Shown here: positions 4,473-27,126 of the stretch, piece by piece
Layout: every line of letters begins with the position of its first letter
Numbering within the stretch: the first letter of the stretch is position 1
Source: an uncultured Bacilli bacterium
GTDB lineage: Bacteria; Bacillota_I; Bacilli_A; RF39; UBA660
Reading direction: 5' to 3'
NCBI GenBank assembly: GCA_947581765.1
Contig: CANPVU010000001.1
Coordinates: forward strand, 5,513-69,512
Length of the DNA: 64,000 bases
Position numbers and translations under genes: made by a program
The notes under the pieces: model-generated
Seen by the model: the letters and a program-made list of their open reading frames with translations, nothing else
The model's database searches: none
What the model was told of the DNA's origin: nothing

Positions 4473-4488
4473 TTTTTTCCTTTCATAG

Positions 4489-6421: not shown

Positions 6422-6940
6422 ATGGTGAAAAAAATGAAAAAAAATTTTAGAATTGAGTTTCATGTTCACACAATTGCATCTAAAGATAGTTTGCTTACAA
6501 AATGGTTTATGCTTTTTATGTTAAAAATTAAAAAGATAAATGCTATTGCTATAACAGATCATAATGAGATTAAAGGTGCACTTAAATATAAAGATTTCTT
6601 CAAAAAGAAGAATATTGATGTCATTGTTGGCGAAGAGATTTTTACAGCTGATGGAGAAATAATTGGTCTATTTTTGAAAAGAAAAATTCAAGAAGGAATG
6701 AGTGCAATTGATACTGTGAAAGAAATAATTAATCAAAATGGATTTGTTTATATTCCACATCCATATGATGAAAAAAGAAAAGATACTGTATTAACAAAAA
6801 AAGCATTACAAGAAATATATAAATATGTTGACTTTATTGAAGTCCACAATGGTAGAAACATATCTTACGAATTTTCAGAAAAACAAAATGAAATCGCAAA
6901 TGATTTTACTTTAAGAAAAGTTGTTGGAAATTTTTTTTAA
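6422..6940 (+). CDS. PHP-domain metal-dependent phosphoesterase (short form)
   Basis: N-terminal FHVHTIASKDS and ITDHNEI His/Asp metal-binding motifs of the PHP family. Could be a CpsB-like phosphatase. 172 aa is short for the family. Confidence 0.5.
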   Translation: MVKKMKKNFRIEFHVHTIASKDSLLTKWFMLFMLKIKKINAIAITDHNEIKGALKYKDFFKKKNIDVIVGEEIFTADGEIIGLFLKRKIQEGMSAIDTVKEIINQNGFVYIPHPYDEKRKDTVLTKKALQEIYKYVDFIEVHNGRNISYEFSEKQNEIANDFTLRKVVGNFF

Positions 6941-8070
6941 TAATTAGATTAATTACATTGTAAAGAGGTACATAAATGAAAATAGCAATGATAGGTCATA
7001 AGAGAATACCCTCACGTGAAGGTGGAGTTGAAATTGTTGTAGAAGAATTATCAACTAGAATGGTTCAACTTGGTAACGAAGTTACTTGCTACAATAGACG
7101 TGGTAAACATGTATTAGATAAAAATGAGAAGATTAAAAAATTAAAAGAATATAAAGGTATAAAAATAAAAGAAGTATTAACAATTGATAAAAAAGGTTTA
7201 GCAGCTATGACATCTTCTTTTTTTGGAACATTTAAAATACTTTTTTCTAATGCAGAAATAGTACATTACCATGCCGAAGGTCCATGTGCCATGATTCCAA
7301 TAATTAAACTTTTCTCTAGAAAAAAAGTAATTGCAACAATTCATGGATTAGATTGGCAAAGAGCTAAATGGAAAAATGGCTTTGCCTCCAAATATATAAA
7401 ATTTGGTGAAAAAATGGCTGCTAAGTATGCAGATGAAATAATTGTACTTAGTGAAAACGTAAAAAAATATTTCAAAGAAACATACAACAGGGATACAAAC
7501 TTTATACCTAATGGAGTTTCTAAACCAGAAATAAAAGAAGCAAAAATCATAAATGAGAAATATGGATTAAGAAAAAATGACTACATACTTTTTTTGGGAA
7601 GAATTGTTCCAGAAAAAGGAATTCATTATTTAATTGATGCATTTAACAAAATTAAAACAAACAAAAAATTAGTTATTGCTGGCGGTGCTAGTGATACTAA
7701 TGAATATTATTCCGAGTTAAAAGAAAAATCAGAAAATAATAAAAACATTATATTTACCGGTTTTATTCAAGGGCAAGAATTGGAAGAACTATATAGCAAT
7801 GCATACATATATGTTTTACCAAGTGATTTAGAAGGTATGCCTCTTTCACTACTTGAAGCAATGAGTTATGGAAATTGTTGCCTAACTTCTGATATAGAGG
7901 AATGTGCTACTGTAATAAAAGATAATGGATTAACATTTAAAAAATCAAATATTGAAGATTTAAAAAATAAACTTCAAAAATTATTAGATAAAGAAGACAT
8001 TGTTATTAAGTATAAAACTAATGCTCAAGATTATATTCTAAATAAATATAACTGGGATGACGTTGTTATT
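6901..8070. repeat. Inverted repeat A, left copy (about 1.17 kb, near-identical)
   Basis: By-eye alignment: 6901-8070 matches the reverse complement of about 28365-29535. The match covers the last ~40 nt of the PHP gene, the intergenic RBS and about 1085 nt of the GT4 gene. One indel was seen in the T-run. Confidence 0.8.
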
Positions 8071-8100
8071 AAAACTTTAAAGATTTATGAAAATAAATAA
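6976..8100 (+). CDS. Glycosyltransferase family 4, copy 1 of a duplicated gene
   Basis: EGMPLSLLEAMSYGNCCLTSD motif. Residues 1 to about 362 are identical to the gene at 28335-29456 on the opposite strand. Only the last 12 aa differ. Confidence 0.8.
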   Translation: MKIAMIGHKRIPSREGGVEIVVEELSTRMVQLGNEVTCYNRRGKHVLDKNEKIKKLKEYKGIKIKEVLTIDKKGLAAMTSSFFGTFKILFSNAEIVHYHAEGPCAMIPIIKLFSRKKVIATIHGLDWQRAKWKNGFASKYIKFGEKMAAKYADEIIVLSENVKKYFKETYNRDTNFIPNGVSKPEIKEAKIINEKYGLRKNDYILFLGRIVPEKGIHYLIDAFNKIKTNKKLVIAGGASDTNEYYSELKEKSENNKNIIFTGFIQGQELEELYSNAYIYVLPSDLEGMPLSLLEAMSYGNCCLTSDIEECATVIKDNGLTFKKSNIEDLKNKLQKLLDKEDIVIKYKTNAQDYILNKYNWDDVVIKTLKIYENK

Positions 8101-8109
8101 TATTTTGAA

Positions 8110-9195
8110 AGGAAGATTCTCATGGCAGAGAAAAAATTAAACGGAACCGTAATAGTTACTTATAGATGTAATGCTAGATGTACTATGTGTAATAGATATA
8201 AATGTCCTTCAAAACCTGAAGAAGAACTTAGTGTTGAAACAATAAAAAAATTACCTAAAATGTATTTTACAAACATAACAGGTGGAGAACCATTCATAAG
8301 AGAAGATTTACCAGATATAGTACGAGAATTATATAAAAAATCTGATCGTATTGTTATATCAACTAATGGTTTTTTTACAGATAGAATTATTAAATTATGT
8401 GAAGAATTTCCTAATGTTGGAATTAGAATATCAATTGAAGGATTAGAAGAAACAAATAATAAAATTAGAGGATTAGATGATGGATTTAATAAAGGATATT
8501 CAACACTAAAAAAACTTGTTGAAATGAAACATCCAGATGTAGGATTTGGAATGACTGTACAAGATGCTAATGCAAAAGATTTAGTTGAACTATATAAATT
8601 ATCTGATGAATTAAATATGGAATTTGCAACAGCATCCTTACATAATAGTTTCTATTTTGTAGAGGCAAAAAACATTATTCATGATAGACCAATGGTAGCA
8701 AAAGAATTTGAAAAATTAATTAATGAACTTTTAAAGTCTAACTCTCCAAAAAAATGGTTTAGAGCATACTTTAATCATGGATTAATTAATTATATTTATG
8801 GTCAAAAACGTTTGTTACCATGTGATATGGCATTTGATACATTTTTCATAGACCCATATGGTGATGTAATGCCTTGTAATGGAACTAAAGACAAAGAAAT
8901 AATGGGAAATTTAAATGAACAAACTTGGGAAGAACTTTGGAATTCAGAGAAAGCAGAAAGAGTAAGAAATAAAGTACGACATTGTGATAGGCAATGTTGG
9001 ATGATTGGATCTGTTTCTCCAGCAATGCACAAATATATATGGAAACCAGCATGGTGGGTATTTAGACATAAGTTTTTAAAATTTTTTAAACAAAATAAAT
9101 ATTCAATGTATGAAAACAAAATTGTTAGAGATTTTAAAGATGGAAAAGTTAGCAAGGAACAATTGGATAAATGTAGTACATGTGATATGAATTGT
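8110..9195. repeat. Inverted repeat B, left copy (about 1.09 kb, a few percent diverged)
   Basis: Matches the reverse complement of about 24855-25912. A few substitutions (K/R, S/T, Q/E) and differing upstream RBS context. Confidence 0.75.
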
Positions 9196-9309
9196 GTAGT
9201 AAATAATGGATTATCTACTGCTTCACTTGAACAATTAAAAAATAAAACTGGTGAAGAAATTGTTAATGCAGATATAGAAAAACAATTTAAGAATTTTGGT
9301 GATAATTAA
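8122..9309 (+). CDS. Radical SAM / SPASM-domain protein, copy 1
   Basis: CNARCTMC (Cx3Cx2C) at residues 16-23. C-terminal Cys-rich region (CDRQCW...CSTCDMNC) consistent with an auxiliary Fe-S (SPASM/twitch) cluster. Residues 1 to about 355 are near-identical to 24786-25889 (-). Confidence 0.8.
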   Translation: MAEKKLNGTVIVTYRCNARCTMCNRYKCPSKPEEELSVETIKKLPKMYFTNITGGEPFIREDLPDIVRELYKKSDRIVISTNGFFTDRIIKLCEEFPNVGIRISIEGLEETNNKIRGLDDGFNKGYSTLKKLVEMKHPDVGFGMTVQDANAKDLVELYKLSDELNMEFATASLHNSFYFVEAKNIIHDRPMVAKEFEKLINELLKSNSPKKWFRAYFNHGLINYIYGQKRLLPCDMAFDTFFIDPYGDVMPCNGTKDKEIMGNLNEQTWEELWNSEKAERVRNKVRHCDRQCWMIGSVSPAMHKYIWKPAWWVFRHKFLKFFKQNKYSMYENKIVRDFKDGKVSKEQLDKCSTCDMNCVVNNGLSTASLEQLKNKTGEEIVNADIEKQFKNFGDN

Positions 9310-11147
9310 TGAATGTATTTAAGAAATTAAATTATGAGTATTTTTCTTTTGATATATTTGACACATTATTATATAGGAAAATATCACCTAATGAAATACA
9401 TAATTTAGTAGAAAAAAAGCTTATTAAAATTGATAAAAAATTTTTAAATCATGCATCAAAAAGATTAGTCGCAGAAAAAAAAGCACAAAAATCTGAAAAA
9501 ATTGAAGCGACAATATATGAGATTTATGACTATATATCTGATTATAGTAAAGATGAAAAACAAATTGCAATAAAGTTGGAAATTGAAACTGAAATTGAAA
9601 ATTTGTATCCAAATCTAAAATTGAAACAAAAAATTAATAATCTAAAAAAAGATGGCAAAAAAATAATTATAATTTCGGATATGTATTATACAAAAGAGAT
9701 ATTAGAAAAAATCTTAAAGTTTTTTAATTTTGAATTTGATTATCTATTTGTTTCATCTGATATACAACTTAGAAAACATAATGGTAAGATTTTTAAATAT
9801 ATTATTAAAAAACTGGCTATACCCAAAAACAAAATGATTCATATTGGTGATAATAAAATTAGTGATTATATTATGCCGAAATTAAATGGAATAAAAAGTA
9901 TTTTATGGAAAAATAAACAGGATAAACATTTAAAAAAGTTGATAAATTTTAAAGGAGATTATAAAAAATTATATCAATTTATTTCTGATAAGAAAGTTGA
10001 TACCTATTTTGAATATATTGGATATGCTTATTTTGGGCCATTATTATTTGGCTTTTGTAATTGGATACATAGTAAAATAGAACTGGAAAAATTGGATAGT
10101 ATTTGTTTTTTATCAAGAGATGGGCAAATAGTAAAAAAAGCTTATTCATTAATCTATGATGAGGATTATCCTTATTTCTTGGCATCAAGAAGATCGTTAA
10201 CTGTTCCACTATTAGAAAACGCAAAAGAAATGAAAGATATATTATCAATAGTTCCATATATAAAAAAATATGAGGAAATATCTGATTTTTTAAAAAAAAT
10301 TGGAATTGAAAATAAAGAAATAGAAAATATTCTTATTAACAAATATGGAAAAACAATTAATCGAAATTTATTATGTTCTGATGAAGGAAATGATATTTTT
10401 AATATTGTGAAAAGCGAAATGTACAAAAATGCAGCCAATGAACAGATGCAAGCAAGAAAATATATTGAGAAAAACATGAAAAAAGGATTAATCGGGTTAG
10501 TTGATATTGGTTGGTATGGAACAATGCAAAAATCACTAACTGATTTATGCAATTTATTTGATTTAAAAATTGATTTCTATGGATTGTATTTAGGATTACT
10601 TAAAAAAGACAATTATGATTCAAACAAAGCGGACGGTTATATTTACTCATATAATAAAAATAAAAAATATGATTCTAATTTAATATATGGATTTAATGGA
10701 TTGATTGAATTGATGTTTACAGCAGACCATGGTTCTGCAAAAAAATATTTTTCAAAAAATGAAAATGTAATGTGTGAGCTTGAACCAGAAAAAGGAGAAT
10801 ATAGTACTTTCGTTCAGCAAGTTCAGAGTGGTGCTTTGCAATTTATTGAAGAATATAAAAAATCAAAATTAAATTTTAATATCAATTGGATAAAATGTTA
10901 TGCATGTATGGAGGATTTACTTACAAATCCTACTATTTCAGAATGTTATTTATTAGGTGATTTAAAATTTTATGATGCATACTTTGAAAAAATAATTCAA
11001 TATAATGGTTTATTAGATTTTGTAAAACATCCAAGAAAAAATATAAAATTATTTTTAAAATCAAATTGGAAGATTGGATATTTAAAAGAAATGTTTGTTT
11101 TTTTAAACTCTAAAGAAATATATAAAATTATTAATAAATTGAAATGA
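9309..11147 (+). CDS. HAD-like hydrolase domain protein with large C-terminal domain of unknown function
   Basis: N-terminal FDIFDTLL (motif I-like), IIISDMY (motif II), HIGDNKISD (GDxxxD motif IV). The C-terminal ~400 aa are not recognised. ATG overlaps the rSAM stop (TAATG). Confidence 0.5.
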   Translation: MNVFKKLNYEYFSFDIFDTLLYRKISPNEIHNLVEKKLIKIDKKFLNHASKRLVAEKKAQKSEKIEATIYEIYDYISDYSKDEKQIAIKLEIETEIENLYPNLKLKQKINNLKKDGKKIIIISDMYYTKEILEKILKFFNFEFDYLFVSSDIQLRKHNGKIFKYIIKKLAIPKNKMIHIGDNKISDYIMPKLNGIKSILWKNKQDKHLKKLINFKGDYKKLYQFISDKKVDTYFEYIGYAYFGPLLFGFCNWIHSKIELEKLDSICFLSRDGQIVKKAYSLIYDEDYPYFLASRRSLTVPLLENAKEMKDILSIVPYIKKYEEISDFLKKIGIENKEIENILINKYGKTINRNLLCSDEGNDIFNIVKSEMYKNAANEQMQARKYIEKNMKKGLIGLVDIGWYGTMQKSLTDLCNLFDLKIDFYGLYLGLLKKDNYDSNKADGYIYSYNKNKKYDSNLIYGFNGLIELMFTADHGSAKKYFSKNENVMCELEPEKGEYSTFVQQVQSGALQFIEEYKKSKLNFNINWIKCYACMEDLLTNPTISECYLLGDLKFYDAYFEKIIQYNGLLDFVKHPRKNIKLFLKSNWKIGYLKEMFVFLNSKEIYKIINKLK

Positions 11148-11164
11148 GGTAGGTGCTTTGATAT

Positions 11165-12358
11165 ATGAATTTAACAAATATGTCAGATAGAACAAGAAAT
11201 TTTATTATTTTTTTAATTACATTTCTTTTATTATTTTCTAGTTTTACCTCGCCTTTTTTTCAAAGTATAAAACATTTTGATTCAATATATGTTTTATTAC
11301 AGTGCTGTTGCTTTTTTATATCAATTTTTCATTTTAAAAGATTTGATAAAATGCTTATACTTATAACTTTATATTACCTAATATATTTAATCTCTACAGT
11401 AATTAATGGAGGAACACAATTAATGGGTGTTGTAAGGGCATATATAGTAGCATTTAATCTTTTAGTTATCACAAAATATTATATGTATAATAATCCTCAA
11501 GTTTATTTTAAAATAGCATCTTTCTTTTTTTATATTATTTTATTTATTGAAATAATAAGTATGATTTTTTATCCAAATGGATTGTATGATGCAAACAATA
11601 TTAACCCTCATTATTTTTTAGGTCATAGAAATAATACAATTGAATATTTATATCCAGCAATCTCTATAGTTTTTATATCTCATTTTATTAATTACAAAAA
11701 AAATATTAGCCATTATCTTTTTTTGTTCATATGCTTATTTTGCGTAATTGCAACTTGGTCAGCTAATTCTATCATTGCATTATTATTTACTATATTTTAT
11801 ATAAAATTAAATAATAATAATACAATCAAGCGTTTTTTTAATTATTGGCATATGTTTTATATAACAATTATAATGTTTTTTTCTTTTATAATATTTAAGA
11901 TTCAAAATTTATTTAAATGGTTTATTGAAGGTATTTTACATAAAAGTTTAACTTTTACAGGAAGAAGCTTAATATGGGATAAATCAATAGAATGGATAAA
12001 AAAATCTTCAATATATGGATATGGTAATGAGCAACAATTGCTAAAAAAATCAAAAATAGGACATATAAATTCATGCCATAACTATTTCTTAGATTTCATG
12101 TATACTGGCGGAATCATTATGCTATCCGTAATACTTTTTATTGTATATTTTGTTGGAAAAGAACTTAGCAAAAATTTAAAAAGTAATAATGACGTAATAA
12201 AAAAAATTGCATACGTTTTATCGGGAATTTCAGGAGGATATTTTATTATCTGGTTTGCTACTCCTGTTCATTTAAATAGCATTTCATATATGTTTCTAGT
12301 TTTTTATATAATTTACAATTTAAAAAATTTAAAGTTAGGGGTATTTAATTATGAGTGA
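11165..12358 (+). CDS. Wzy-like polymerase / O-antigen ligase family membrane protein
   Basis: About 10 transmembrane helices. GHINSCHNYFLDFMYTGG resembles the Wzy_C (O-antigen ligase) motif. Confidence 0.65.
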   Translation: MNLTNMSDRTRNFIIFLITFLLLFSSFTSPFFQSIKHFDSIYVLLQCCCFFISIFHFKRFDKMLILITLYYLIYLISTVINGGTQLMGVVRAYIVAFNLLVITKYYMYNNPQVYFKIASFFFYIILFIEIISMIFYPNGLYDANNINPHYFLGHRNNTIEYLYPAISIVFISHFINYKKNISHYLFLFICLFCVIATWSANSIIALLFTIFYIKLNNNNTIKRFFNYWHMFYITIIMFFSFIIFKIQNLFKWFIEGILHKSLTFTGRSLIWDKSIEWIKKSSIYGYGNEQQLLKKSKIGHINSCHNYFLDFMYTGGIIMLSVILFIVYFVGKELSKNLKSNNDVIKKIAYVLSGISGGYFIIWFATPVHLNSISYMFLVFYIIYNLKNLKLGVFNYE

Positions 12359-13499
12359 CATTTTATCTATAATTAGGCAAAAATTAATAAAGTTTTTTTT
12401 CCATTGTTTTTTTATCTTTAAAATTAAAAATAATAGAATTTTCCTTATGAACTATAATGGAAAAGGTTATGGTGACAGTCAAAAATACATAAGTGAAGAG
12501 TTGTTAAAAGATGATTATTATGAAATTGTTTGGGCTGTTAATAATATAGAATCTCCTTTTCCAAAAGAAATAATCAAAGTTAAACGAAATTCAATAAAAT
12601 ATTTTTATTATTTGTCAACATCTAAGGTACTTATAAATAATTGTAGATTTCCATTATTTTTTACAAAAAGAAAAGAACAGTATTATATTCAAACTTGGCA
12701 TAGTCCATTAAGATTAAAAAAAATTGAAATGGATGCAAAATCTAATTTTTCTAAATATTATATTTTGACTATGAAAAATGATTCAAAATACATTGATGAA
12801 ATATTGAGTGGTTGTAAATTTAGTTATGATATCTATTCTAGAGCATTTTTATATTCTGGAAAAATATCGAAGACTGGTACACCTAGATGTGATGTTTTTT
12901 TTGATGAAAAAAATAAAGTATCGTTAAAAAAAAGATTAACAAGAGAATTAAATTTGGACTCGAGAAAAAAAATAATTTTATATGCACCAACTTATAGAAA
13001 AAATTGCAGTATGAATGATGTTATGATGAATATAAAAAAGGTATACAGAAAAATAAGTAATAATTATGAACTATTAGTTAGATTTCATCCATTAACTAAG
13101 AAAATAGATTTACAGAAAAATATAAAAAATGTTACATGTTATCCTGATATACAAGAATTATTAACAATTTCAGACATTTTAATTACCGATTATTCAAGTT
13201 GCTTATTTGATATGTTAATTGCAGAAAAAAAATGTATTTTACTACTAAAAGATATAAAAAATTATTTACAAAAAGAGAGAGATTTGTATTTTGATATAAA
13301 TGAGTTACCTTTTCCAAAAGCATATACTGATGATGAATTAATATGTATAATTGAAAACTATGATAAATATTACAATAAAAATCAAATGAATAAATTTAAA
13401 AGAAAAATTGGTTTATATGAACACGGAAATGCGGCTTTTCTTGTAAAAAAAAGAATTGATTCAATTGTGAAAGAAGGAAAAAAATATGAAAAAATATAA
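12351..13499 (+). CDS. CDP-glycerol glycerophosphotransferase (TagF/TagB family)
   Basis: TagF-family C-terminal features: YAPTYRKN, HPL, ITDYSSCLFDMLIAEKK. 382 aa with no transmembrane segment. Confidence 0.7.
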   Translation: MSDILSIIRQKLIKFFFHCFFIFKIKNNRIFLMNYNGKGYGDSQKYISEELLKDDYYEIVWAVNNIESPFPKEIIKVKRNSIKYFYYLSTSKVLINNCRFPLFFTKRKEQYYIQTWHSPLRLKKIEMDAKSNFSKYYILTMKNDSKYIDEILSGCKFSYDIYSRAFLYSGKISKTGTPRCDVFFDEKNKVSLKKRLTRELNLDSRKKIILYAPTYRKNCSMNDVMMNIKKVYRKISNNYELLVRFHPLTKKIDLQKNIKNVTCYPDIQELLTISDILITDYSSCLFDMLIAEKKCILLLKDIKNYLQKERDLYFDINELPFPKAYTDDELICIIENYDKYYNKNQMNKFKRKIGLYEHGNAAFLVKKRIDSIVKEGKKYEKI

Positions 13500-13914
13500 A
13501 ATAGGATATACATCAGGCGTATTTGATATGTTTCATATAGGCCATTTAAATATTTTAAAAAAAGCTAAAGAAAATTGCGATTATTTAATTGTTGGAGTAA
13601 CAACAGATGAACTAGCACTATATAAAAATAAGGTACCAATTATTCCATTTTCAGAACGAAGACAAATTGTTGAAGCAATTAGATATGTTGATATGGTTAT
13701 TCCACAAGAAAATATGAACAAGAAAATAGTTTGCCAAAAATATAATGTAGATGCTATATTTGTTGGTGATGATTGGAAGGGAACCGAAAAGTGGAATAAT
13801 ATAGAATCAGAGCTTAATCAAATTGGAACAGATGTAGTATATTTTCCATATACAAAAGGAACTTCTTCTACAATATTAAGAGAAAAATTATTAAATAAAA
13901 ATAATGGTGAATAA
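13486..13914 (+). CDS. Cytidylyltransferase, TagD family
   Basis: KIGYTSGVFDMFHIGHLNILKKAKENCDYLIVGVTTDE. Confidence 0.75.
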   Translation: MKKYKIGYTSGVFDMFHIGHLNILKKAKENCDYLIVGVTTDELALYKNKVPIIPFSERRQIVEAIRYVDMVIPQENMNKKIVCQKYNVDAIFVGDDWKGTEKWNNIESELNQIGTDVVYFPYTKGTSSTILREKLLNKNNGE

Positions 13915-15318
13915 ATGTCTAGAAATAAAGATTTTATAATGAACACAATAATAATATTTATTGGTAAATTCGCAACTCAATTCATGTCTCTTTTACTTTT
14001 ACCTTTATTTACAAGATATTTGTTGTCAGAAGATTATGGATTAGTTGATTTATTTCAAACATATATCTCTTTATTTACTCCTATTCTTACTTTTAGAATA
14101 GATAGTGCACTATTTAGATTTTTGGTTGATAAGAGAAATAATTACAAAGAAATAAGTAAAACGATAAGTAACTCAATTTTAATTTTATCAATAAGTCTGA
14201 TTATAACAACATCAATCGGACTCGTCTTATTTAAATTTATAAATATAAAGTATTTTGGATATGTAATATTAAATTTGATTGTTTTAATGATAAGCAGTAG
14301 TTTACTCCATGTATTAAGAGGATTAGGAAAAACTAAAGATTATTCAATTGCCAGTATCATTACTGGAATTATTACATTAATAACAAATATTATTTTAATA
14401 ATTGTTGTTCATATGGATGCTAAAAGTATTTTAATATCATCATCTATTGCAAATTCCTTTTGTATAATTTATATCATAATTAGAAGTAATCTATTCAAAT
14501 ATATAAAATTAAACTTAATTAATTTATCAACATTAAAAGAAATATTAAAATATACTCTTCCTATGATTCCTAACTCACTATCATGGTGGATTGTTAATGT
14601 ATCTGATAGAACAATTATATCATTATTTATAGGAATTGCTTACAATGGAATATATACAGTATCATGTAAGTTTTCTAATATACTAAATAGTATATATTCG
14701 ATTTTTCATTTATCATGGCAAGAAACAGTTATATTACACATTGACGATGAAGATAGTGATAAATATTTATCAACCATGATTAACAAATTATTAAATTTAT
14801 TTTCATCTATGTCAATATTAATAGTAGTAGTTTTACCATTTTTATATGATATATTAGTAGGAAAAGAATATTTAACATCATATAATTATATACCAATTTT
14901 ATTATATTCAAACTCTTGGAATGTACTTATAAGCTTAATAGGTGCAATATATGTAGCGCGGAAGGAAACAAAAAAAGTTGCAAATACTACAATAATATCA
15001 GCAATAATAAATTTAATAATACATTTTTGTTTAATTAAATTTATAGGATTATATGCAGCTTGTATCTCTACATTAATATCATATATGGTAATGGCAATAT
15101 ATAGATATATTGATAGTAAAAAGTATGCAAATTATAAATTGGACATCAAAAATATAATTATATTTACAATTATATTTATATTAAGTTATATTATGTATTT
15201 GATAAACAATATATTCATTAATACAATTAATTTAATAATAGCTTTAGTATATATCTTTATAGTTAATAAATATATTTTTAAGTATAAAGATATATTTATA
15301 AATAAAAATAAATATTAA
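13915..15318 (+). CDS. Wzx-type oligosaccharide flippase (MOP superfamily)
   Basis: 467 aa, 12-14 transmembrane helices, polysaccharide biosynthesis protein architecture. Confidence 0.7.
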   Translation: MSRNKDFIMNTIIIFIGKFATQFMSLLLLPLFTRYLLSEDYGLVDLFQTYISLFTPILTFRIDSALFRFLVDKRNNYKEISKTISNSILILSISLIITTSIGLVLFKFINIKYFGYVILNLIVLMISSSLLHVLRGLGKTKDYSIASIITGIITLITNIILIIVVHMDAKSILISSSIANSFCIIYIIIRSNLFKYIKLNLINLSTLKEILKYTLPMIPNSLSWWIVNVSDRTIISLFIGIAYNGIYTVSCKFSNILNSIYSIFHLSWQETVILHIDDEDSDKYLSTMINKLLNLFSSMSILIVVVLPFLYDILVGKEYLTSYNYIPILLYSNSWNVLISLIGAIYVARKETKKVANTTIISAIINLIIHFCLIKFIGLYAACISTLISYMVMAIYRYIDSKKYANYKLDIKNIIIFTIIFILSYIMYLINNIFINTINLIIALVYIFIVNKYIFKYKDIFINKNKY

Positions 15319-15353
15319 ATTTTAACTATTTTTAGTTTTTTAGACCAAATAAT

Positions 15354-15382
15354 AAAGTTGTATTTTTACAACTTTTTATTAT
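15354..15382. terminator. Bidirectional rho-independent terminator between convergent operons
   Basis: AAAGTTGTA-TTTTT-ACAACTTT hairpin flanked by A-run and T-run. Lies between the Wzx stop (15318) and the minus-strand gene stop (15388). Confidence 0.6.
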
Positions 15383-15387
15383 GTTTA

Positions 15388-16104
15388 TTATTTAATTTTT
15401 TTCTTAACCAACAGATATCCTTCAAATAATTCTAAATCTTCTTTAGTAGTTATTTTTATATTTGTTTGACTTCCTTTAGAGAAGTATATTGGAATACCTA
15501 ATTTATACATCAATGTAGTAGTATGGGGTTCTACTTTGTCTATAATGCCTGTTTTAATAGCCTCTTCATATATATTTTTTATTACTTCAAACTTAAAGGC
15601 ATGTGGGGAATTCATACAAACTATTGTTTCTCTATCTATATAATTTGTAGATTTTTCACCATCAGAATCTCTATATCCAGATAATAGATAGAATGGAGTT
15701 GTTGATATTGCATTGCCTTTTTTATTACATACTTTAATTGAATCTAAAATTATTTCTTCACTTACAAATGGAGAAGCACCAAAATGAATTATTACATTGT
15801 CATTTTCATTAATTTTTCCAATTAAATTATTTACTCCATTTAATACAGAATGTTGGAAGTCTTTTCCTCCTGGTGTAATCCATTTTACCTTAGTATATTT
15901 GTTTTCTGTTACTATCTTTGATAAATAATCTATATAATCTTTATGACATACAATTTCTATTTTATCGATTTCGTTGCTATTTTGAAATGCTTCAATTGTG
16001 TAAGCTAATACAGGCTTTCCAAAAATTTCAATAAATTGCTTTGGGATATCTGCACCTAATCTTGTACCAACTCCACCTGCTAAGATTATTGCTATATTAC
16101 TCAT
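15388..16104 (-). CDS. IspD/TarI-family cytidylyltransferase (CDP-polyol, e.g. CDP-ribitol, synthase)
   Basis: MSNIAIILAGGVGTRLGADIPKQFIEIFGKPVLAYTIEAF, the N-terminal signature of 2-C-methyl-D-erythritol-4-P / ribitol-5-P cytidylyltransferases. Confidence 0.75.
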   Translation of the reverse strand: MSNIAIILAGGVGTRLGADIPKQFIEIFGKPVLAYTIEAFQNSNEIDKIEIVCHKDYIDYLSKIVTENKYTKVKWITPGGKDFQHSVLNGVNNLIGKINENDNVIIHFGASPFVSEEIILDSIKVCNKKGNAISTTPFYLLSGYRDSDGEKSTNYIDRETIVCMNSPHAFKFEVIKNIYEEAIKTGIIDKVEPHTTTLMYKLGIPIYFSKGSQTNIKITTKEDLELFEGYLLVKKKIK

Positions 16105-16106
16105 AA

Positions 16107-17702
16107 TTACATCTCCTTGTAACTTTCAATAACTTTATCAATGTTATTTACTAAATATCTATATGAAGGTAATAGAAAGAATCCATCTTCTTCACCTAAA
16201 CTACCTTTATACATTCCCCAAGATACCCAATAAAATGCATTTATTATTGATTGTCCCATTACATGTCTATGCTCTAAATCAGTTAAATCTCTACCGTAAT
16301 ATTCTTTGATTAATTTTTCTTTTATTTCTTCATTATATTCGTATCTAGTTATAATACTACATATATCATTTGCAGGATCCATTATACCAGCATATTCCCA
16401 ATCAATTAAATATAAATCACCGTTCTTTGTTGCAATAAAATTTGGTTCATACACATCATTATGACTTACAACCATTTGTATATTATATTTTTTTCTTTCT
16501 TCCTTTAGATATTCATTTACCATATCTACTTTATCAATTAAATCTTTAAATTCTTTAAATATATTTCCTTTTGTAGAAGATGCTATTTTCCATAATTTTT
16601 TTCCTTCTTCTACATTGTCAAATATTTTTACATCATCACTTATAGGTATTGTATGTGTTTTTCTTAGATATTCCATTCCTTTCTTTAGTTGAGAATGATT
16701 ATTTATAAAATCACATTTAACTATATCTTGAACATAATAAGATAATTTCCAACCAGAAGGATCCATATAAATAAAAGATTTGTCAAGTCCCATTTCTTTT
16801 GCTTTATTTTGAGTATAAAGTTCAGTTTTTCTATCTATTAAATTTCCTGCAGTTCCTCCAGGATGCCTATAAACATACTCAGTTCTATCTACTGTAAATT
16901 TAAATGATACATTTGTTAAACCAGCTTGTATAATTGAAATATCATAAATATCATTTGGATGGCAATTTAATTTACTACAAATATTTTCTACTATTTCTGA
17001 ATCAACATTCAATAAAAAGTCGGAATCAAATCTTCTTAATTCATCAATTGAGTCAAATTCTAATATTTTATCATAATCATATTCTTTCATATATAATGTT
17101 AAATCTTTTATATGTATCGCGAAAAATTCTTCCCAAAACATATTAGCAACACCAAAATCATTTATTTCTTTTTCAAGTAAATTTCTTAATTTATTTGAGA
17201 ATCTTTCATTAAAATAAGCGTGTCCTATCATTGCCATTTTATCATGGCCACCAATATAGCATCCTGATATTACCTTAGCATCTGTATAATCTATAGAAAA
17301 TTCTCTAAATTTTTTTGAATAGTATGTAGCTGCTCTGTATGAGATATTATCACTATTATTATCAATAAATGGGTTGCTTATAAAATAATGGTCTGCACAA
17401 CATATAAAAGTATTTTTTAAGTATGCTTTTGCTACATATAATGAGTAAATATTTCCATATTTTCCATATGTATTATTAACTATAAGTTTAACTTGTTTGT
17501 ATTTTTGCTCTAAATAAAAGAATTTTTCTTTCATATATCCAACAACAATTAAAATTTCTTCAATTCCTGCCTCAATTAATTGCTCAATTTGCCTTTCAAT
17601 TAATACTTCACCCTTAACGATGAATAAACCTTTTGGTTTTTCATAAGTAAACGGTGCAAATCTATTAGATTTACCAGCCGCTAAAATTATTGCATTTTTC
17701 AT
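16107..17702 (-). CDS. Bifunctional LicC-like nucleotidyltransferase / LicA-like choline (aminoalcohol) kinase
   Basis: N-terminal AIILAAGKSNRF...KPKGL (LicC-like). C-terminal HNDVYEPNF...IDWEYAG (Brenner and choline-kinase motifs). Confidence 0.75.
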   Translation of the reverse strand: MKNAIILAAGKSNRFAPFTYEKPKGLFIVKGEVLIERQIEQLIEAGIEEILIVVGYMKEKFFYLEQKYKQVKLIVNNTYGKYGNIYSLYVAKAYLKNTFICCADHYFISNPFIDNNSDNISYRAATYYSKKFREFSIDYTDAKVISGCYIGGHDKMAMIGHAYFNERFSNKLRNLLEKEINDFGVANMFWEEFFAIHIKDLTLYMKEYDYDKILEFDSIDELRRFDSDFLLNVDSEIVENICSKLNCHPNDIYDISIIQAGLTNVSFKFTVDRTEYVYRHPGGTAGNLIDRKTELYTQNKAKEMGLDKSFIYMDPSGWKLSYYVQDIVKCDFINNHSQLKKGMEYLRKTHTIPISDDVKIFDNVEEGKKLWKIASSTKGNIFKEFKDLIDKVDMVNEYLKEERKKYNIQMVVSHNDVYEPNFIATKNGDLYLIDWEYAGIMDPANDICSIITRYEYNEEIKEKLIKEYYGRDLTDLEHRHVMGQSIINAFYWVSWGMYKGSLGEEDGFFLLPSYRYLVNNIDKVIESYKEM

Positions 17703-17769
17703 TTTATCACCTCTAACTTAATTAAACATTTACTTATAAAATCATATTTTTTATATGATAAATTTTTAT

Positions 17770-18939
17770 TTATATTTTTATTTTGAGAAAATTTAGTAAT
17801 CTTTCACAATTATTAACTTTATATTTATTTACAAAATTATTAATTTTAGCTCTATCTTGTTTAAATTTATCAAAATTTTTTGAAATATTTTCAATAAATA
17901 AGTAAAATGAATTTATGTCAATAATGAAATCTCCTGGCATATATTCTTTATAATTAGAAATCATATATCCACGTTTTAATTCATAGTCTTCAACATCTTT
18001 CAAGTAAAATCCAATTGGCTTGTCAAGTAATAAATAATCAAAATAAACAGATGAAAGATCAGTTAAAAGGGCATCAGTACAAGATAGAAGTTCATATAAT
18101 TGAATATTATATTTTATTAAATCGTCATCATTAATGAAAATTATATTTTTTAAATTAATATTATTATCATAATTAAAAATTTGGCAATGATGCGGTTTAA
18201 TTATTAATATAACGTTTTCTTTATCTAACTTATTGTTCAATTGTATTAAATCTAATTCATTTTCTACAAAAGGAATTATGTATTTATTAACAACGGATGA
18301 ATCCTTTCTTTCATTTGTTTGATGATATGTAGGCATACATATAATAACTTTTTGATTATTAATTTTTAATATTTTATTTATTTTTTTATGATTATCTATC
18401 ATCAAGTAATCGTTTCTGGGATATCCACAATATATCATTTTATTTCTAGGGGTACCTGTAAACTTTGAAAGCCAAGGCATAACATTAAAAGATGGACAAA
18501 TCATATAATCATATGTATTACCAATTGAGGTGGTAGGATTTTTGAATGTTGTTCCATGCCATAAATTAACTACAACTTGTTCTTTATGAATTTTTTTAAA
18601 CCACCAAGGATGAGTAAAGAAAAAATATTTAGCAGTACATAATATATTTGATTTTCTTTTTATTTCTAGTGGGTTCCAAGTATAATATTGGAAAAATTTT
18701 TCATATTCGTTATTCCTAAATTCTTTTTTGTTTTTTACTATCCAAATCAATTTTATATTGTTTTTTGTCATATTATTTAAAATATAATCAGAAAGTGCTC
18801 TTGCATTATCTGTATAATCGCCTTCGCTTTGAAATACAAAGAAATTATTCTTTACTTTATTTTTTCTATAAATAAAGCAAAAAAATTTTAACAATGAAGA
18901 GTTATATTTTAAATATATTTTATTGATAAATTTTTTCAT
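17770..18939 (-). CDS. CDP-glycerol glycerophosphotransferase (TagF family), second paralog
   Basis: 389 aa. Similar architecture to 12351-13499 (CMPTYHQTNE, DLSSVYFDYLLLDKP). Confidence 0.65.
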   Translation of the reverse strand: MKKFINKIYLKYNSSLLKFFCFIYRKNKVKNNFFVFQSEGDYTDNARALSDYILNNMTKNNIKLIWIVKNKKEFRNNEYEKFFQYYTWNPLEIKRKSNILCTAKYFFFTHPWWFKKIHKEQVVVNLWHGTTFKNPTTSIGNTYDYMICPSFNVMPWLSKFTGTPRNKMIYCGYPRNDYLMIDNHKKINKILKINNQKVIICMPTYHQTNERKDSSVVNKYIIPFVENELDLIQLNNKLDKENVILIIKPHHCQIFNYDNNINLKNIIFINDDDLIKYNIQLYELLSCTDALLTDLSSVYFDYLLLDKPIGFYLKDVEDYELKRGYMISNYKEYMPGDFIIDINSFYLFIENISKNFDKFKQDRAKINNFVNKYKVNNCERLLNFLKIKI

Positions 18940-20359
18940 TTATATCACCATTCTTATTTTTAGATATTTTTTTTAATATTTTCTTTATTTCTTTATGATT
19001 AATAAATAAAATAAAAAGTAACATAAAAATTTCAACTGTATATAAAACAATATTATATTTTATTGTTAAGATTAAAATTATTTGAAGAATTAATATAATA
19101 TAGGAAAAAAAATCTCTTTTTAAATTTAATTTCAAACTCACATATCTTTTTACCTTTATTAACCTCATTAACCATACAATAAAATATGACATAGCTGTTG
19201 ACATAGCAGCTCCCATAACTCCAATTTTGTATATCAAAATTATATTTAGAATAAAATTTGATATCGCCCCAATTACAGTTGTATAACTTAAAAATTTCGA
19301 GTCTTTAGCTGCTTGAAAAACCCCACCTAATACTCCTGCGAGTGCTCCAAATAAAACAGAAATCATTAATAGTGGAACATATCTCCATGCAGAATAGAAA
19401 TCTTTTGAATATAAAATACTTGCAATTATTTTTGTAAAAATTATCATTACTGAGCATGCTACTATCATTATAAAATTATACGTACAATAAATGTTTTTTA
19501 AAAAAATATCTCTATCATTTTTATCATATAATTTAACAATTGATAACTGCCATGCCTGATTAAATATTGTTTGTACTACTGAAAGAATAGATGGAATTTT
19601 GTATGCAACTGAATATATACCATTTATCGACAATCCACACATCCAAGTAACAATATATCGATCTGAAGCATTGTTTATCCACCAACTTAACGAATTAAGG
19701 ACAAGAGGTCTGCTATACATTATCATACTCTTTTCTAATTTCTTATTTATTTTATTTAAACTTAAATATTTAAAAATTCTAATTCTTATTAATAAATAGA
19801 AACAAGAAAAAACATATGAAATTATGCTAGCTAAAAAATATCCATCCAATCCTAATTTCAATACTAATAGAAAATATAAATTTAAAGATATCATTATTAC
19901 AGTATTAATTACACCACTCATTGCTAAATCAAAAATTTTTCCTAAACCTCTTACAAAGTATTGTAAAATTTGAAAAATAGTAGTAGTTACAAAAAGAAAA
20001 ATAAAATAAGCTGAATATTCATTAAGTATATATACAAATTTAAAATAACAATTTATTATAAATAATATTAAAAAAATAATAAACCCAAAAAGAAAATATT
20101 TTATCGATATCATCATGATTTGTGATTTATCATTATTTTCATCCAACGAAAATCTCAAAATAGATTCCGAAATATTTAAAGTTAAAATAGGTGTTAACAA
20201 AGTTACTGTTGTATATATTAAATCATAACTGCCATAATCAGATGTAGATAATACAGCGGTATAAAGCGGTACAAGGAAAAAACTTAATAATTTACTACTG
20301 AAATTGCTAATTGTTAATAGTCCAATATTTTTTAATAAGTATTTGTATTTATTTTTCAT
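18920..20359 (-). CDS. Wzx-type flippase
   Basis: 479 aa polytopic MOP-family protein. Confidence 0.7.
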   Translation of the reverse strand: MKNKYKYLLKNIGLLTISNFSSKLLSFFLVPLYTAVLSTSDYGSYDLIYTTVTLLTPILTLNISESILRFSLDENNDKSQIMMISIKYFLFGFIIFLILFIINCYFKFVYILNEYSAYFIFLFVTTTIFQILQYFVRGLGKIFDLAMSGVINTVIMISLNLYFLLVLKLGLDGYFLASIISYVFSCFYLLIRIRIFKYLSLNKINKKLEKSMIMYSRPLVLNSLSWWINNASDRYIVTWMCGLSINGIYSVAYKIPSILSVVQTIFNQAWQLSIVKLYDKNDRDIFLKNIYCTYNFIMIVACSVMIIFTKIIASILYSKDFYSAWRYVPLLMISVLFGALAGVLGGVFQAAKDSKFLSYTTVIGAISNFILNIILIYKIGVMGAAMSTAMSYFIVWLMRLIKVKRYVSLKLNLKRDFFSYIILILQIILILTIKYNIVLYTVEIFMLLFILFINHKEIKKILKKISKNKNGDINEKIYQ

Positions 20360-21183
20360 TTTTTTCTTCTTCCTTTAAATTTAATCAAATAATAATTTAA
20401 TGTATGATTTAACCCCTGATTTTTTATTTTTAGAAAGAATTTTTGAGGAAAACTAATTACCTTTATAAATTTTTTTGAATTTTTTACTCCAAATATTGGT
20501 TCAAATTTTTGCATTACATAGTGCCATTTTTTATCGTTATCGTCTATCCAAGACATTGAATATCTATGGATACTATATGTATTTTCAGTAATTTGTAACT
20601 TACCATTATAATAATTTAAAGGACAAAAATATTCTGTAGGGAATATTGCTACTCCGTTTATAAATTGAAGTTTTTTACTAATTTTGAGTCCTTTGTTTTT
20701 TAATATTTCAGTCGTTATTTTGGGACAAGTAATAGTATTGAAAGTACCATCATCATTTATAAACCTCAAGTCATTATAATAATCTAAATTTTCTTTAATG
20801 ATTGGATGATGTTTTACTGCACCAAACCCCAAACCTGTATTAATAAAACCACTTACTTCAAATCCCATAAAGCATTCATATGACAGTAATTTATCGAAAT
20901 TTTTTATTACTTCTACATCAGTATCTAAATAAATTCCACCATTATTATAAATAATATCTAAACGCGCATAATCTGAAACAAAAGCCCATTTTTTATGTTC
21001 ATACGCAGATTTAATAAATTCACATTTTCTAATATCAAAATTTTTTTCGTTCCACTCTATTATTTGATAATCAGGCATGTATTTTTTCCAAGATTCTATA
21101 TAATTTTTATATTCTTCTGGTAATGGTTTTCCACCGAACCAACAATAATGAATAACTTTAGGTATTTTTTTCATAAAATTCAC
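20356..21183 (-). CDS. GT32-like glycosyltransferase (sugar-binding region with DXD motif)
   Basis: IPKVIHYCWFGGKPLPEEY ... LDTDVEV, the Gly_transf_sug (Och1-like) pattern. Confidence 0.7.
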   Translation of the reverse strand: MNFMKKIPKVIHYCWFGGKPLPEEYKNYIESWKKYMPDYQIIEWNEKNFDIRKCEFIKSAYEHKKWAFVSDYARLDIIYNNGGIYLDTDVEVIKNFDKLLSYECFMGFEVSGFINTGLGFGAVKHHPIIKENLDYYNDLRFINDDGTFNTITCPKITTEILKNKGLKISKKLQFINGVAIFPTEYFCPLNYYNGKLQITENTYSIHRYSMSWIDDNDKKWHYVMQKFEPIFGVKNSKKFIKVISFPQKFFLKIKNQGLNHTLNYYLIKFKGRRKK

Positions 21184-21184
21184 C

Positions 21185-22366
21185 TTATAATCTATTTTTA
21201 ATTTTAAATTTAATATTACTAAATTTTTTTCTTAATTTCATTTTAATTTCTTGATTTTTTGTACCTCTACAATACATTTTTAAAAATTTTTTCTTTAATT
21301 CACAATAAGCTTTTAATGCATCATCCTTATATGGATAATAGTATAGTTCATCATATCTAACTATGCTATTTCTGTCTGTATCATAATATGTTTCAATTAA
21401 TATGTTATAATTTTCTTCTGGATCATAACTTAAATCATAAAGTTCTTCAACATTTGTTTCTTTATTATATATATATTTAAATCGCTCACCAATAATTGCA
21501 GTTTTTCTATGTGGTTGCATATAGTATGCAGTGTCAACAATTGTAAATTTTCTTTCAATGATTTTATTATTCAATATTAATTCAACTAAATCCAAATGCG
21601 AAGTTAAAAAATCAACACTTTTTATATTATCAATTCTAGGAGTTATCAATGGAATACAAACTATTGGTTCATAAACGTGAAATCCATAACCTACCAGGCC
21701 CTTATGCATGTTCATATGTCCATGATCAGTTGTTAGGTAAATGTTATCATCACCTACCATTTTTCTTACAAAACCAACAATATTATCAAAATCCTCCATA
21801 TCATCCATATAAGAATTTCTACCTTTTAATATATGTGGAAGATGCATCCAAATAAATACAGGCTTAGATAAATCAATAGAATTTAGTTCAGTATAAATTT
21901 TATTATAGGTTTCTTCCATTTTTTTATCATTTCTTATTATTTTTTTCTCTGCATCTTTCTTTTTATGTGAGCCAGCTGGTTGTGCAATATCAATGTTATG
22001 TATAATTGTTTTATTTTCGTCACCAAATTCACGTACATATTTCCATGCCATGTCCATCCAAGTTTTGTCCCATATTAAATGGCATATATATCCCTTTTTT
22101 TGTAATATGTCAAAAATACTATTAAATTCATTTTTCAAAACAGGTTTATAAGTTTTTCTGCTTGAGAACTCATATGGATACTTTCCTGTTAAAAAAGAAC
22201 TCATTGACATAGATGTAGATGATGCTGTTGTGTAATGCCTTTTGAAAACTGTTCCATTATGTGCTAATGTATCGATATTTGGTGTATTAAATAATTTGTT
22301 ACCATATATTGGTAAAGACTCTTTTGACATACAATCTTTTGTTAGCAAAAAAATAATTTTTTTCAT
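21185..22366 (-). CDS. Sulfatase-fold (alkaline phosphatase superfamily) protein, probable phosphotransferase/hydrolase
   Basis: FNTPNIDTLAHNGTVFKRHYT...LTGKYP is the sulfatase N-terminal fold. The C/S-x-P-x-R formylglycine motif is absent (TSMSMSSF). No transmembrane segment. Confidence 0.55.
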   Translation of the reverse strand: MKKIIFLLTKDCMSKESLPIYGNKLFNTPNIDTLAHNGTVFKRHYTTASSTSMSMSSFLTGKYPYEFSSRKTYKPVLKNEFNSIFDILQKKGYICHLIWDKTWMDMAWKYVREFGDENKTIIHNIDIAQPAGSHKKKDAEKKIIRNDKKMEETYNKIYTELNSIDLSKPVFIWMHLPHILKGRNSYMDDMEDFDNIVGFVRKMVGDDNIYLTTDHGHMNMHKGLVGYGFHVYEPIVCIPLITPRIDNIKSVDFLTSHLDLVELILNNKIIERKFTIVDTAYYMQPHRKTAIIGERFKYIYNKETNVEELYDLSYDPEENYNILIETYYDTDRNSIVRYDELYYYPYKDDALKAYCELKKKFLKMYCRGTKNQEIKMKLRKKFSNIKFKIKNRL

Positions 22367-23646: not shown

Positions 23647-24749
23647 CTATAAAATCCTCCAATTCTACAGAAAAGGTAAATTAAGTAAATCATTTTATGT
23701 TTTATCAAAATTGATATTATTTTCTGCTTTGTTGGATTTTGATGGTAAGGATACTTATCTAAAACTTCTTGAATAACATCATTATTACAGATTTTTTTTA
23801 TTTCTTTTATTTTATTTTTAAAGCTTAAATCTGATACTGTAACAATTTGTTTAAAACATACTCTAGTATTTCCAAGTAAAGTACGTTGAATTCTATTATC
23901 AGCATCTTTAAAACCCAGCTCATGTATTAGTTCTAATTCTTTTTTATATAAAATAATATTTTTTTCAAATCTATTTGAATTATATCTTTTTGTTAAAGAG
24001 TTGTAATTTTTTCGGTAATAATAATCACACTTAGAAGACGTACAAACTATTTTTGAATTTCTTAAAAAATAAATATTAAATATTAAATCTTCTGAAATAT
24101 ATTCTCTTTCTGAAAAAAAGCTAAGTCTATTCTTATCAATAATTTCTTTTCTATATATTGCTACACAACTAGAAATTGGAAAGCTTTGGTCTTTCTTTTT
24201 TTTAGGTGTAGAGCCAAGCATATCTAACATTATTCTATCTATTTGATTGTTTTTCAAAACCATATTACCATATGAATTGGGATTTTTTTTTATTTTTCCA
24301 TTTGGAAATAAATCAATTATTCCAGAATATACTGCATCAGCATCTTCTTTTATTGCAATATTGTATAAGTTATATAACATATTTTCACTAATAAAATCGT
24401 CAGAATCTACAAATGAAATATATTCACCCATAGCAATATTAATACCTGAATTTCTTGCTAACCCTAATCCCTCATTTTTTTTGTGAATTACTCTAACTCT
24501 AGAATCTTTTTCTTTATAATAATCGCAAATTTTTGGGCAATTATCTGGTGAATTATCATCTATTAATATAATTTCAATATTTTTTAGTTTTTGATTTAAT
24601 ATTGATTCAATACATTCTTGCAAATATTTTTCTACATTATATATTGGAACAATAACACTAACTTTAGGCTTTTTCATATTAACTCTCCCATTTAAACATT
24701 TATTAAAAATAAACAAAACATTTTTTAATAATCTATATATTTTGTTCAT
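23643..24749 (-). CDS. Glycosyltransferase family 2
   Basis: VSVIVPIYNVEKYLQECIESILNQ...IILIDDNSPDN...VDSDD. Likely true start at the internal MKKPKVS. Confidence 0.75.
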   Translation of the reverse strand: MNKIYRLLKNVLFIFNKCLNGRVNMKKPKVSVIVPIYNVEKYLQECIESILNQKLKNIEIILIDDNSPDNCPKICDYYKEKDSRVRVIHKKNEGLGLARNSGINIAMGEYISFVDSDDFISENMLYNLYNIAIKEDADAVYSGIIDLFPNGKIKKNPNSYGNMVLKNNQIDRIMLDMLGSTPKKKKDQSFPISSCVAIYRKEIIDKNRLSFFSEREYISEDLIFNIYFLRNSKIVCTSSKCDYYYRKNYNSLTKRYNSNRFEKNIILYKKELELIHELGFKDADNRIQRTLLGNTRVCFKQIVTVSDLSFKNKIKEIKKICNNDVIQEVLDKYPYHQNPTKQKIISILIKHKMIYLIYLFCRIGGFYR

Positions 24750-24785
24750 ATGACAATTTTAGTCATATTTTTTCAATTATCATAC

Positions 24786-27111: not shown

Positions 27112-27126
27112 AAATTTATCACTACC

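Follow-up and report, generated by a model that had tools for sequence, protein, structure and literature searches.

Near-identical inverted head genes of two convergent glycan operons in an uncultured Bacilli bacterium: a probable case of gene conversion

Two convergent glycan operons on contig CANPVU010000001.1 of an uncultured Bacilli bacterium (assembly GCA_947581765.1) begin with almost identical genes, and these genes form two long inverted repeats. The operons lie within a stretch of 64,000 nt, here referred to as the window, and are named cassettes B and C. Each of them is headed by a gene for a GT4 glycosyltransferase with a DUF1972 domain and by a gene for a radical SAM/SPASM protein (here named rSAM). 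Both inverted repeats are real and far beyond chance. On the evidence of the sequence, intragenomic gene conversion between pre-existing inverted paralogues has probably overwritten the GT4 and rSAM head genes, with cassette B as the most likely donor; we would give this reading a probability of roughly two in three. The locus is most likely a further instance of a known process, ordinary homologous recombination.

A repeat search of the 64-kb window detected the two long inverted repeats (A and B), and their limits were set by blastn and base-level alignment. The arms and the genes that belong to them are:

6899..8066, plus strand: arm 1 of inverted repeat A, with the 3' relic of a PHP-domain gene, a leader and the GT4/DUF1972 gene without its last 11 codons (blastn, 99.83% to 29533-28366)
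28366..29533, minus strand: arm 2 of inverted repeat A (blastn, window profile)
6976..8100, plus strand: GT4 glycosyltransferase with DUF1972 (Cps2T/WchF-like), copy 1, 374 aa (Pfam; NCBIfam Cps2T, 124 bits)
28335..29456, minus strand: GT4/DUF1972 copy 2, 373 aa (Pfam, translation)
8067..8106, plus strand: joint of 40 nt that separates repeat A from repeat B in cassette B (base-level alignment)
8107..9212, plus strand: arm 1 of inverted repeat B, with the ribosome-binding site and most of rSAM copy 1 (blastn, 98.9% to 25903-24799)
24799..25903, minus strand: arm 2 of inverted repeat B, with the ribosome-binding site and nearly all of rSAM copy 2 (blastn, base-level alignment, 60-nt profile)
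8122..9309, plus strand: rSAM/SPASM copy 1, 395 aa, with the family-typical C-terminal tail (PF04055 1e-15, PF13186 4.7e-12)
24786..25889, minus strand: rSAM/SPASM copy 2, 367 aa, ending ...CVIKNGLPDE (stop), all Cys motifs kept, conserved tail lost (PF04055 8.5e-16, PF13186 3.7e-12)
24750..24813, minus strand: cassette C homologue of the rSAM tail, diverged and decayed, with the last codons, a premature stop and a non-coding remnant with a 1-nt shift (fixed-register identity)
25942..28326, minus strand: two further GT4 genes of 389 and 399 aa between GT4/DUF1972 and rSAM in cassette C (Pfam, neighbour census)
9213..24798, no strand: interior between the rSAM arms, 15.6 kb, with the 3' halves of the two convergent operons (gene content)

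Repeat A comprised 1168 nt with 2 mismatches (99.8%) and repeat B 1106 alignment columns with 11 mismatches and one 1-nt gap (98.9%), the gap being located upstream of the start codon. Within the high-identity zone of repeat B seven mismatches were found (8136, 8172, 9080, 9141, 9152, 9160 and 9165). All seven lie at most 66 nt from the 5' end or at most 118 nt from the 3' end, and the core of 907 nt from 8173 to 9079 is 100% identical between the copies. In 60-nt windows the identity was 57% before 8115, then 97-100%, and finally 98%, 93% and 63%. At the outer edges it was approximately 63% past 9197 and at background level ahead of 8107. The GT4 arms are 20.3 kb and the rSAM arms 15.6 kb apart. 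All other paralogue pairs of cassettes B and C shared 24-54% protein identity, with 71-83% DNA identity over stretches of 130-260 nt, and repeats A and B are therefore extreme outliers.

These results agree in large part with a preliminary description of the stretch. The repetition of the rSAM gene 8122-9309 at 24786-25889 (minus strand) was confirmed with 98.9% identity and sharp edges; copy 2 starts at ATG 25889, and the GTG 25898 of the open reading frame (ORF) list is an unlikely start. Sliding-window identity, proposed there for detecting conversion tracts, gave a plateau of 97-100% with sharp boundaries, and the rSAM genes (~99% identical) are not ordinary paralogues. The two GT4 genes placed between the units in cassette C (25942-28326) are real. 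The GT4 and rSAM repeats of cassette B, described as contiguous, are indeed neighbours but are separated by the unshared joint 8067-8106. At the two cassette C junctions this joint had identities of 53% and 47%, both within the null, and is preserved at neither. An unshared joint in cassette B together with two unshared genes in cassette C argues for two tracts and not for one copied block. The slightly higher divergence of repeat B had been ascribed to an older duplication or to partial conversion. Conversion is the best explanation, but a greater age does not follow: the mismatches lie at the ends around the 907-nt core, and the difference between repeats A and B is within the assembly uncertainty.

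The rSAM copies match up to C359, after which 36 aa follow in copy 1 and 8 aa in copy 2 (37 versus 9 aa if counted after nt 9195) and not 40 and 13 aa as first reported. The radical SAM motif CX3CX2C (C16-x3-C20-x2-C23) was invariant in 34 homologues, and both copies retain every Cys up to CSTCDMNC, as expected for a SPASM protein. For the C-terminal 30 residues the family has the consensus NNGLSEASxEQLKNKTGEEIVxADIxxQ; it is present in copy 1, while copy 2 ends with IKNGLPDE (stop). To compare the tails, the repeat register was extended beyond the boundary, with 456 other registers as null (mean 30%, maximum 53%). Identity was 63% at 9198-9227 and, with a 1-nt shift, 58% at 9228-9260, in both cases above the null maximum. 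The tails were not significant in a local-alignment shuffle test, and the fixed-register test was significant for the rSAM tail alone. The residual homology of ~60 nt past the rSAM boundary indicates that cassette C already had an rSAM homologue, and by this alignment cassette C holds a decayed rSAM-tail homologue behind a premature stop. The impression of swapped tails is thus not borne out, since the tail of copy 1 is family-conserved and that of copy 2 consists of a premature stop and decayed remnants, not of an alternative functional module.

Near the boundary copy 2 has the family-consensus residues R320, T344 and E347; the corresponding residues of copy 1 are K, S and Q. That a frameshift produced the differing tails was ruled out, as the sole gap precedes the start codon and the tails are set apart by substitutions and a stop. 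The exact copy 2 protein is also recorded in other assemblies of the same contig. Two tail-less rSAM relatives of 358 aa (P0400 and P0402), located on long contigs from several sources, end with CSTCEF(N/D)D and are without the conserved tail and the last Cys. Such a tail-less lineage apparently persists, and with natural variants of this kind the truncation of copy 2 need not, as far as its homologues suggest, abolish function.

The GT4/DUF1972 copies differ only in their final 10-11 residues. These tails (VIKTLKIYENK versus VQITLNLYKK) have the same length and look homologous in protein. Compared with the equivalog NF046071 of the Cps2T/WchF beta-1,4-rhamnosyltransferases the protein reached 124 bits at a cut-off of 500, so that it is related but not an equivalog. 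Ahead of the GT4 gene, repeat A contains the remains of a PHP-domain gene:

6422..6940, plus strand: truncated PHP-domain ORF, 172 aa versus ~240 aa in homologues (Pfam, homologue alignment)
29504..29533, minus strand: outermost 30 nt of repeat A in cassette C, a PHP-gene relic (PHP homologue alignment and repeat register)

The PHP ORF aligns without gaps to full-length homologues until DFTLRKVVG (aa 160-169); the expected SDAH motif is then missing. The last genuine PHP codons (aa 160-169, nt 6899-6928) are located within repeat A, and cassette C shares the 30-nt relic and the truncation junction, with no further PHP sequence upstream. The PHP codons inside repeat A and the relic in cassette C therefore indicate that repeat A of cassette C came from a B-like donor. 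Outward of 6899/29533 no homology was found (37-38% identity, within the null), and repeat A ends here either at an illegitimate junction or where a later deletion stopped. In total, 77 nt upstream of the GT4 gene are common to both heads (a 47-nt leader and the 30-nt PHP relic), and the promoter regions beyond differ.

Under gene conversion the starting point would have been two convergent Wzx/Wzy-type operons, each headed by a DUF1972-type GT4 and a radical SAM/SPASM gene as inverted paralogues. Homologous recombination would have overwritten the head genes, most likely from cassette B to cassette C, via the RecA-dependent route known from other bacteria. The outcome would be two separate tracts of ~1.1-1.2 kb and ~99-100% identity, each ending within the 3' end of a gene. 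Tails and flanks would keep older diverged sequence because conversion cannot pass the end of homology; for rSAM of cassette C this would be the premature stop followed by the decayed tail. We infer both the recombination mechanism itself and the direction for the rSAM tract from these patterns.

The identity of ~99-100% stands against 24-54% protein identity of the other cassette paralogues and 87.5% DNA identity of the rSAM pair in another metagenome-assembled genome (MAG). A plateau that is flanked by older homology, with differences concentrated at the end, was found at the rSAM 3' end, although assembly collapse may exaggerate this plateau. Relatives of rSAM are encoded in 584 candidate stretches of species-representative genomes, of which the best 80 loci were fetched for comparison. 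Orthologues are ~88% identical in protein, although the identity at four-fold degenerate sites (median 43%) has reached saturation. Compared with this saturation, the complete lack of synonymous differences in the core argues for a very recent exchange and not for selection alone.

In Salmonella enterica the inverted genes tufA and tufB (1185 nt, 12 differences) undergo RecA-dependent conversion that is blocked at the homology ends, and positions near these ends convert less often (PMC5485169). The clustering of the repeat B mismatches at the ends fits the pattern expected from this effect. Both systems consist of inverted genes of ~1.1-1.2 kb on one replicon which are ~99% identical, with conversion within the homology and inversion possible. 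However, the arms described here are 15-20 kb apart and belong to accessory glycan operons, whereas the tuf genes are essential translation genes. Furthermore, two adjacent genes are here affected as separate tracts, one copy is C-terminally truncated, and the case is known from sequence alone.

The sole priming transferase found in the window is WbaP-like (Bac_transf, 41655-42338) and is encoded with an LCP protein in a further operon. We propose that with one priming transferase and a common lipid-linked intermediate the head genes would be interchangeable and their homogenisation would cost nothing. Both head enzymes would accordingly act on this common early intermediate, which would explain why homogenisation was tolerated. 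In Streptococcus pneumoniae the modular capsule (cps) loci have conserved genes for early steps (wchA, wchF/cps2T) in front of the serotype-specific ones. The two cassettes resemble these loci in having a conserved 5' head for the early steps, which includes a Cps2T-related DUF1972 GT4 and precedes variable glycosyltransferase, Wzy and Wzx genes, and in having recombination breakpoints in conserved genes. They differ in that two inverted cassettes of one genome exchange sequence and in that the head includes an rSAM/SPASM enzyme. The locus would illustrate cleanly, in nature, how inverted paralogues in a hypervariable glycan region evolve in concert: shared early-step genes stay interchangeable while the remainder of each cassette diverges.

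Several points weigh against gene conversion. At its outer end (6899/29533) repeat A borders on DNA without homology; this tract can be a classical two-sided conversion only if the PHP sequence upstream was subsequently lost from cassette C. Beyond the 3' end of the GT4 tract the DNA identity of 53% was not significant (99th percentile of the null, 56%). The perfect cores may be collapsed assembly edges, in which case the clustering of mismatches at the ends may partly be an artefact; if 6 further polymorphic sites are counted, the largest gap without differences falls from 907 to 492 nt. Finally, the recombination event is inferred and was not observed directly.

An outer boundary against non-homologous DNA and a PHP relic within repeat A would also result from a recent partial inverted duplication, which put the head of cassette B (PHP relic, GT4 and rSAM core) into a cassette C that had no homologues. 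The two GT4 genes would have been inserted later and the tails would be illegitimate junctions; copy 2 with its lost tail and a stop 8 codons past the last shared residue is in agreement with this. We nevertheless regard such a duplication as unlikely, since decayed homology is significant for ~60 nt beyond the rSAM boundary and identity steps down over 98%, 93% and 63% instead of falling in a single drop. Additionally, cassette C is without the 40-nt joint, the GT4 tails are equal in length and similar in protein, and GT4-GT4-GT4-rSAM orders arise independently in other species.

Three assemblies of the locus were compared, namely the window and two contigs of 80,995 bp from ENA (ERZ27059539 and ERZ27249211). 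Outside the repeats they were 100% identical over 19-21 kb, and all 7-10 differences per comparison fell within the two repeats. Both arms were fetched for ERZ27059539, and in it the same alleles were changed at mirror positions of both copies (7221/29211, 7281/29151, 7421/29011, 7758/28674, 7773/28659, 8664/25347 and 8700/25311). ERZ27249211 was compared over one arm only, so that the mirroring figures are those of ERZ27059539. To judge from this pattern, the repeat cores are probably collapsed graph edges that were traversed twice, with bubbles resolved differently per run. If so, the 16 variable sites at 6919, 6927, 6931, 6971, 7221, 7281, 7421, 7758, 7773, 8664, 8700, 8862, 8899, 8950, 8960 and 9080 would be real copy-specific or strain-specific differences, and repeats A and B would in truth be about 99.1% and about 98.4% identical, respectively.

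It is improbable, however, that assembly accounts for the repeats as such, with de Bruijn graph edges used twice, identity inflated and the path from head to tail arbitrary or chimeric. The restriction of all differences to the repeats, mirrored in ERZ27059539, would agree with it, but collapse can only inflate identity and cannot create repeats, and it requires by itself a divergence of a few per cent or less. The repeats are not artefacts because each unique joint and tail requires its own repeat copy; this applies to the joint 8067-8106, to 25904-28365, to the convergent junction 15318-15388 and to both tails. Moreover, an independent Logan contig of 1.9 kb from another sample (L090, SRR27728189) confirms the contiguity of PHP, GT4, joint and rSAM start with 98.6% identity. 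From the window it deviates by 0.55% over the unique PHP stretch and, over repeat A, by 1.9%, and several variable alleles are common to both. The contig stops 84 nt into the rSAM repeat, as a collapsed edge would predict. At its other end L090 matches the window from 6356 onward; the 38 nt before this are unrelated and G+C-rich, with the break directly after a GGGTTCACT motif (6356/6357). Here either the contig is chimeric or a real rearrangement has occurred.

The near-identical P0002 and P0003 gave the same arrangement as the window. Exact database look-ups of rSAM copy 1 and of P0001 gave no match, and neither did two metagenome scans with the copy 2 tail and with a 35-mer of the core; the scans yielded neither isomers nor independent phasing. 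As metagenome assemblies collapse such repeats, copy-specific alleles and the pairing of heads and tails are unreliable without long reads. Likewise, short reads do not fix how the 15.6-kb interior is oriented with respect to the heads, and recombination between the arms would flip it.

Repeats A and B are ready substrates for inversion, being 1.1-1.2 kb long, inverted and ~99% identical. In a programmed switch, RecA or the tyrosine recombinase encoded at 40674-41597 would use the nested repeats to invert the 15.6- or 20.3-kb interior and to pair the 3' halves of the operons anew with differently regulated heads. The promoter regions upstream of the shared 77 nt do differ, and besides the tyrosine recombinase gene the region contains that of a large serine recombinase (59361-60950). 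If true, as many as four operon isoforms would exist in an uncultured low-GC gut Firmicute, amounting to an 'operon-tail shufflon' of surface glycans in which one head carries two extra GT4 genes. We consider such a switch very doubtful, as the evidence against it is stronger than that in favour. A single arrangement was present in all three fetched assemblies, though these probably represent closely similar or identical data and the repeats cannot be phased with short reads. With 1.1-1.2 kb they are homologies over nearly whole genes, and no short conserved crossover site was identified. In site-specific shufflons of the hsdS ivr or Min/pilV type a dedicated recombinase recognises short inverted sites and its gene is beside the invertible genes, whereas the tyrosine recombinase gene is 11 kb away, and tblastn found no homologue of it within 10 kb of rSAM in the 85 related loci. 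Inversion would also leave the gene content unaltered, and the other two-copy genome (87.5% DNA identity) is not homogenised.

In the sap locus of Campylobacter fetus, S-layer gene cassettes lie in opposite orientation, and RecA-dependent inversion takes place between their conserved 5' regions. Both loci have oppositely oriented homologues with conserved 5' and variable 3' parts. The sap locus, however, has a single promoter on an invertible segment between divergent cassettes, whereas in the window the heads point inward and the promoters are outside the segment; furthermore, only one isomer of the window locus has been seen in the assemblies. A composite transposon was ruled out, with no transposase between or beside the arms, and an ancient palindromic duplication of the whole four-operon region is insufficient, as genes paired in mirror image share no more than 24-54% identity.

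In the databases rSAM has more than 7,600 matching proteins. The best 80 relatives share 83-91% protein identity across Clostridia, Lachnospiraceae, Bacilli-type MAGs, Blautia and Acetivibrio, and the G+C content of the gene tracks that of the host from 27% to 52%. These comparisons indicate a very strong purifying selection of ancient date and not a recent spread. In approximately 75 of 85 loci a homologue of the DUF1972 GT4 (55-80% identity) is located 1-5 kb from rSAM, either directly upstream, one or two genes upstream, or downstream. The gene directly ahead of rSAM is most commonly that of a ~400-aa GT4 of the kind encoded at 27127-28326, with a median gap of 3.5 nt, and a Bac_transf gene is usually found 1.8-4 kb upstream. 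Because the order of GT4 and rSAM is variable elsewhere, both arrangements of the window have precedents, and the separation of rSAM from its GT4 partner in cassette C, at first taken for a special rearrangement, is nothing exceptional. A second genome with two rSAM cassettes (MAG BRZ_E__bin81, L042 and L047) has rSAM genes of 87.5% DNA identity with no homology outside the gene.

No NCBIfam equivalog was reached by rSAM, the best being TIGR03961 with 87 bits at a cut-off of 306. The AlphaFold model is of moderate quality (pLDDT 69), and a fold search led only to generic SPASM enzymes. Foldseek matched solved SPASM structures with probability 1.0 and TM ~0.45-0.5, and phmmer matched SkfB with E = 1.2e-12. 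With SkfB, anSME, CteB, BlsE and PqqE the protein shares the CX3CX2C radical SAM core and a Cys-rich SPASM extension, but it is only 14-20% identical to them and its context is polysaccharide assembly, not peptide maturation. A literature search for a characterised rSAM in capsule or exopolysaccharide loci found nothing relevant. The most valuable lead of the locus is this uncharacterised and unusually constrained rSAM/SPASM enzyme, which is encoded in more than 580 Firmicute species, is nearly always located in polysaccharide loci among GT4 genes just downstream of a priming transferase and is a well-defined target for a radical step in glycan assembly.

The window has a G+C content of 24.9% and contains at least four alternately oriented glycopolymer operons (assigned by Pfam):

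468-6162, minus strand: operon A, with two cytidylyltransferases, two LicD, GT4, acetyltransferase and others
6422-15318, plus strand: operon B, with the truncated PHP ORF, GT4/DUF1972, rSAM-SPASM, a 612-aa HAD protein, Wzy, TagF-like, TagD-like and Wzx
29456-15388, minus strand: operon C, with GT4/DUF1972, two more GT4, rSAM-SPASM, GT2, a 427-aa ORF without family match, a sulfatase-fold protein, a DXD glycosyltransferase, Wzx, TagF-like, a LicC/choline-kinase fusion and IspD-like
29651-41597, plus strand: operon D, with two LicD, aminotransferase, OCD, Stealth, GT2, pyruvyl transferase and Wzx, then a tyrosine recombinase

Operons B and C are convergent and meet at 15318/15388, and the repeated genes are therefore the inward-pointing heads of both. 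Their Wzx/Wzy character is based in cassette B on Wzy_C (11165-12358) and Polysacc_synt (13915-15318) and in cassette C on Polysacc_synt (18920-20359), where the 427-aa ORF 22363-23646 is a candidate polymerase from its position only. The tyrosine recombinase (40674-41597, plus strand, 307 aa) is XerA/XerC-like below the equivalog cut-offs; its gene is located at the end of operon D and is convergent with the WbaP-like and LCP genes. An Rfam scan of the entire window gave zero matches, and promoter and terminator scans were uninformative in DNA of 25% GC, with fewer matches than in shuffled sequences.

The G+C-rich octamer GGGTTCAC is present in 4 copies in the 64 kb (0.34 expected), all of them in the divergent intergenic regions between operons A and B and between C and D, with motif sites at 6200-6220, 6345-6356 and 29614-29625. 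In the A/B region an 18-nt inverted pair (6200-6217 / 6339-6356) encloses 121 nt with a promoter-like site TTGACT-16-TG-TATTAT directed toward operon A. An operator or an invertible promoter may be formed by this pair together with GGGTTCAC. The C/D divergent promoter region has in its centre (29558-29613) a 21-nt A+T-rich hairpin with 90% complementarity, followed by a T run. The hairpin is enclosed in an imperfect inverted repeat of 33 nt (29510-29542 / 29605-29637), whose first arm extends over the outer end of repeat A.

The large serine recombinase (59361-60950, minus strand, 529 aa) adjoins an 868-aa ORF (61269-63875, minus strand) which consists of direct repeats every ~470-490 nt (repeat families D1-D3, 61424-64000). 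A mobile element or a variable surface protein may lie here, at the window edge. Between the housekeeping gene hisS and the polysaccharide region, a serpin-domain protein of 515 aa (46043-47590) and a non-specific endonuclease (45199-45981) are encoded on the minus strand.

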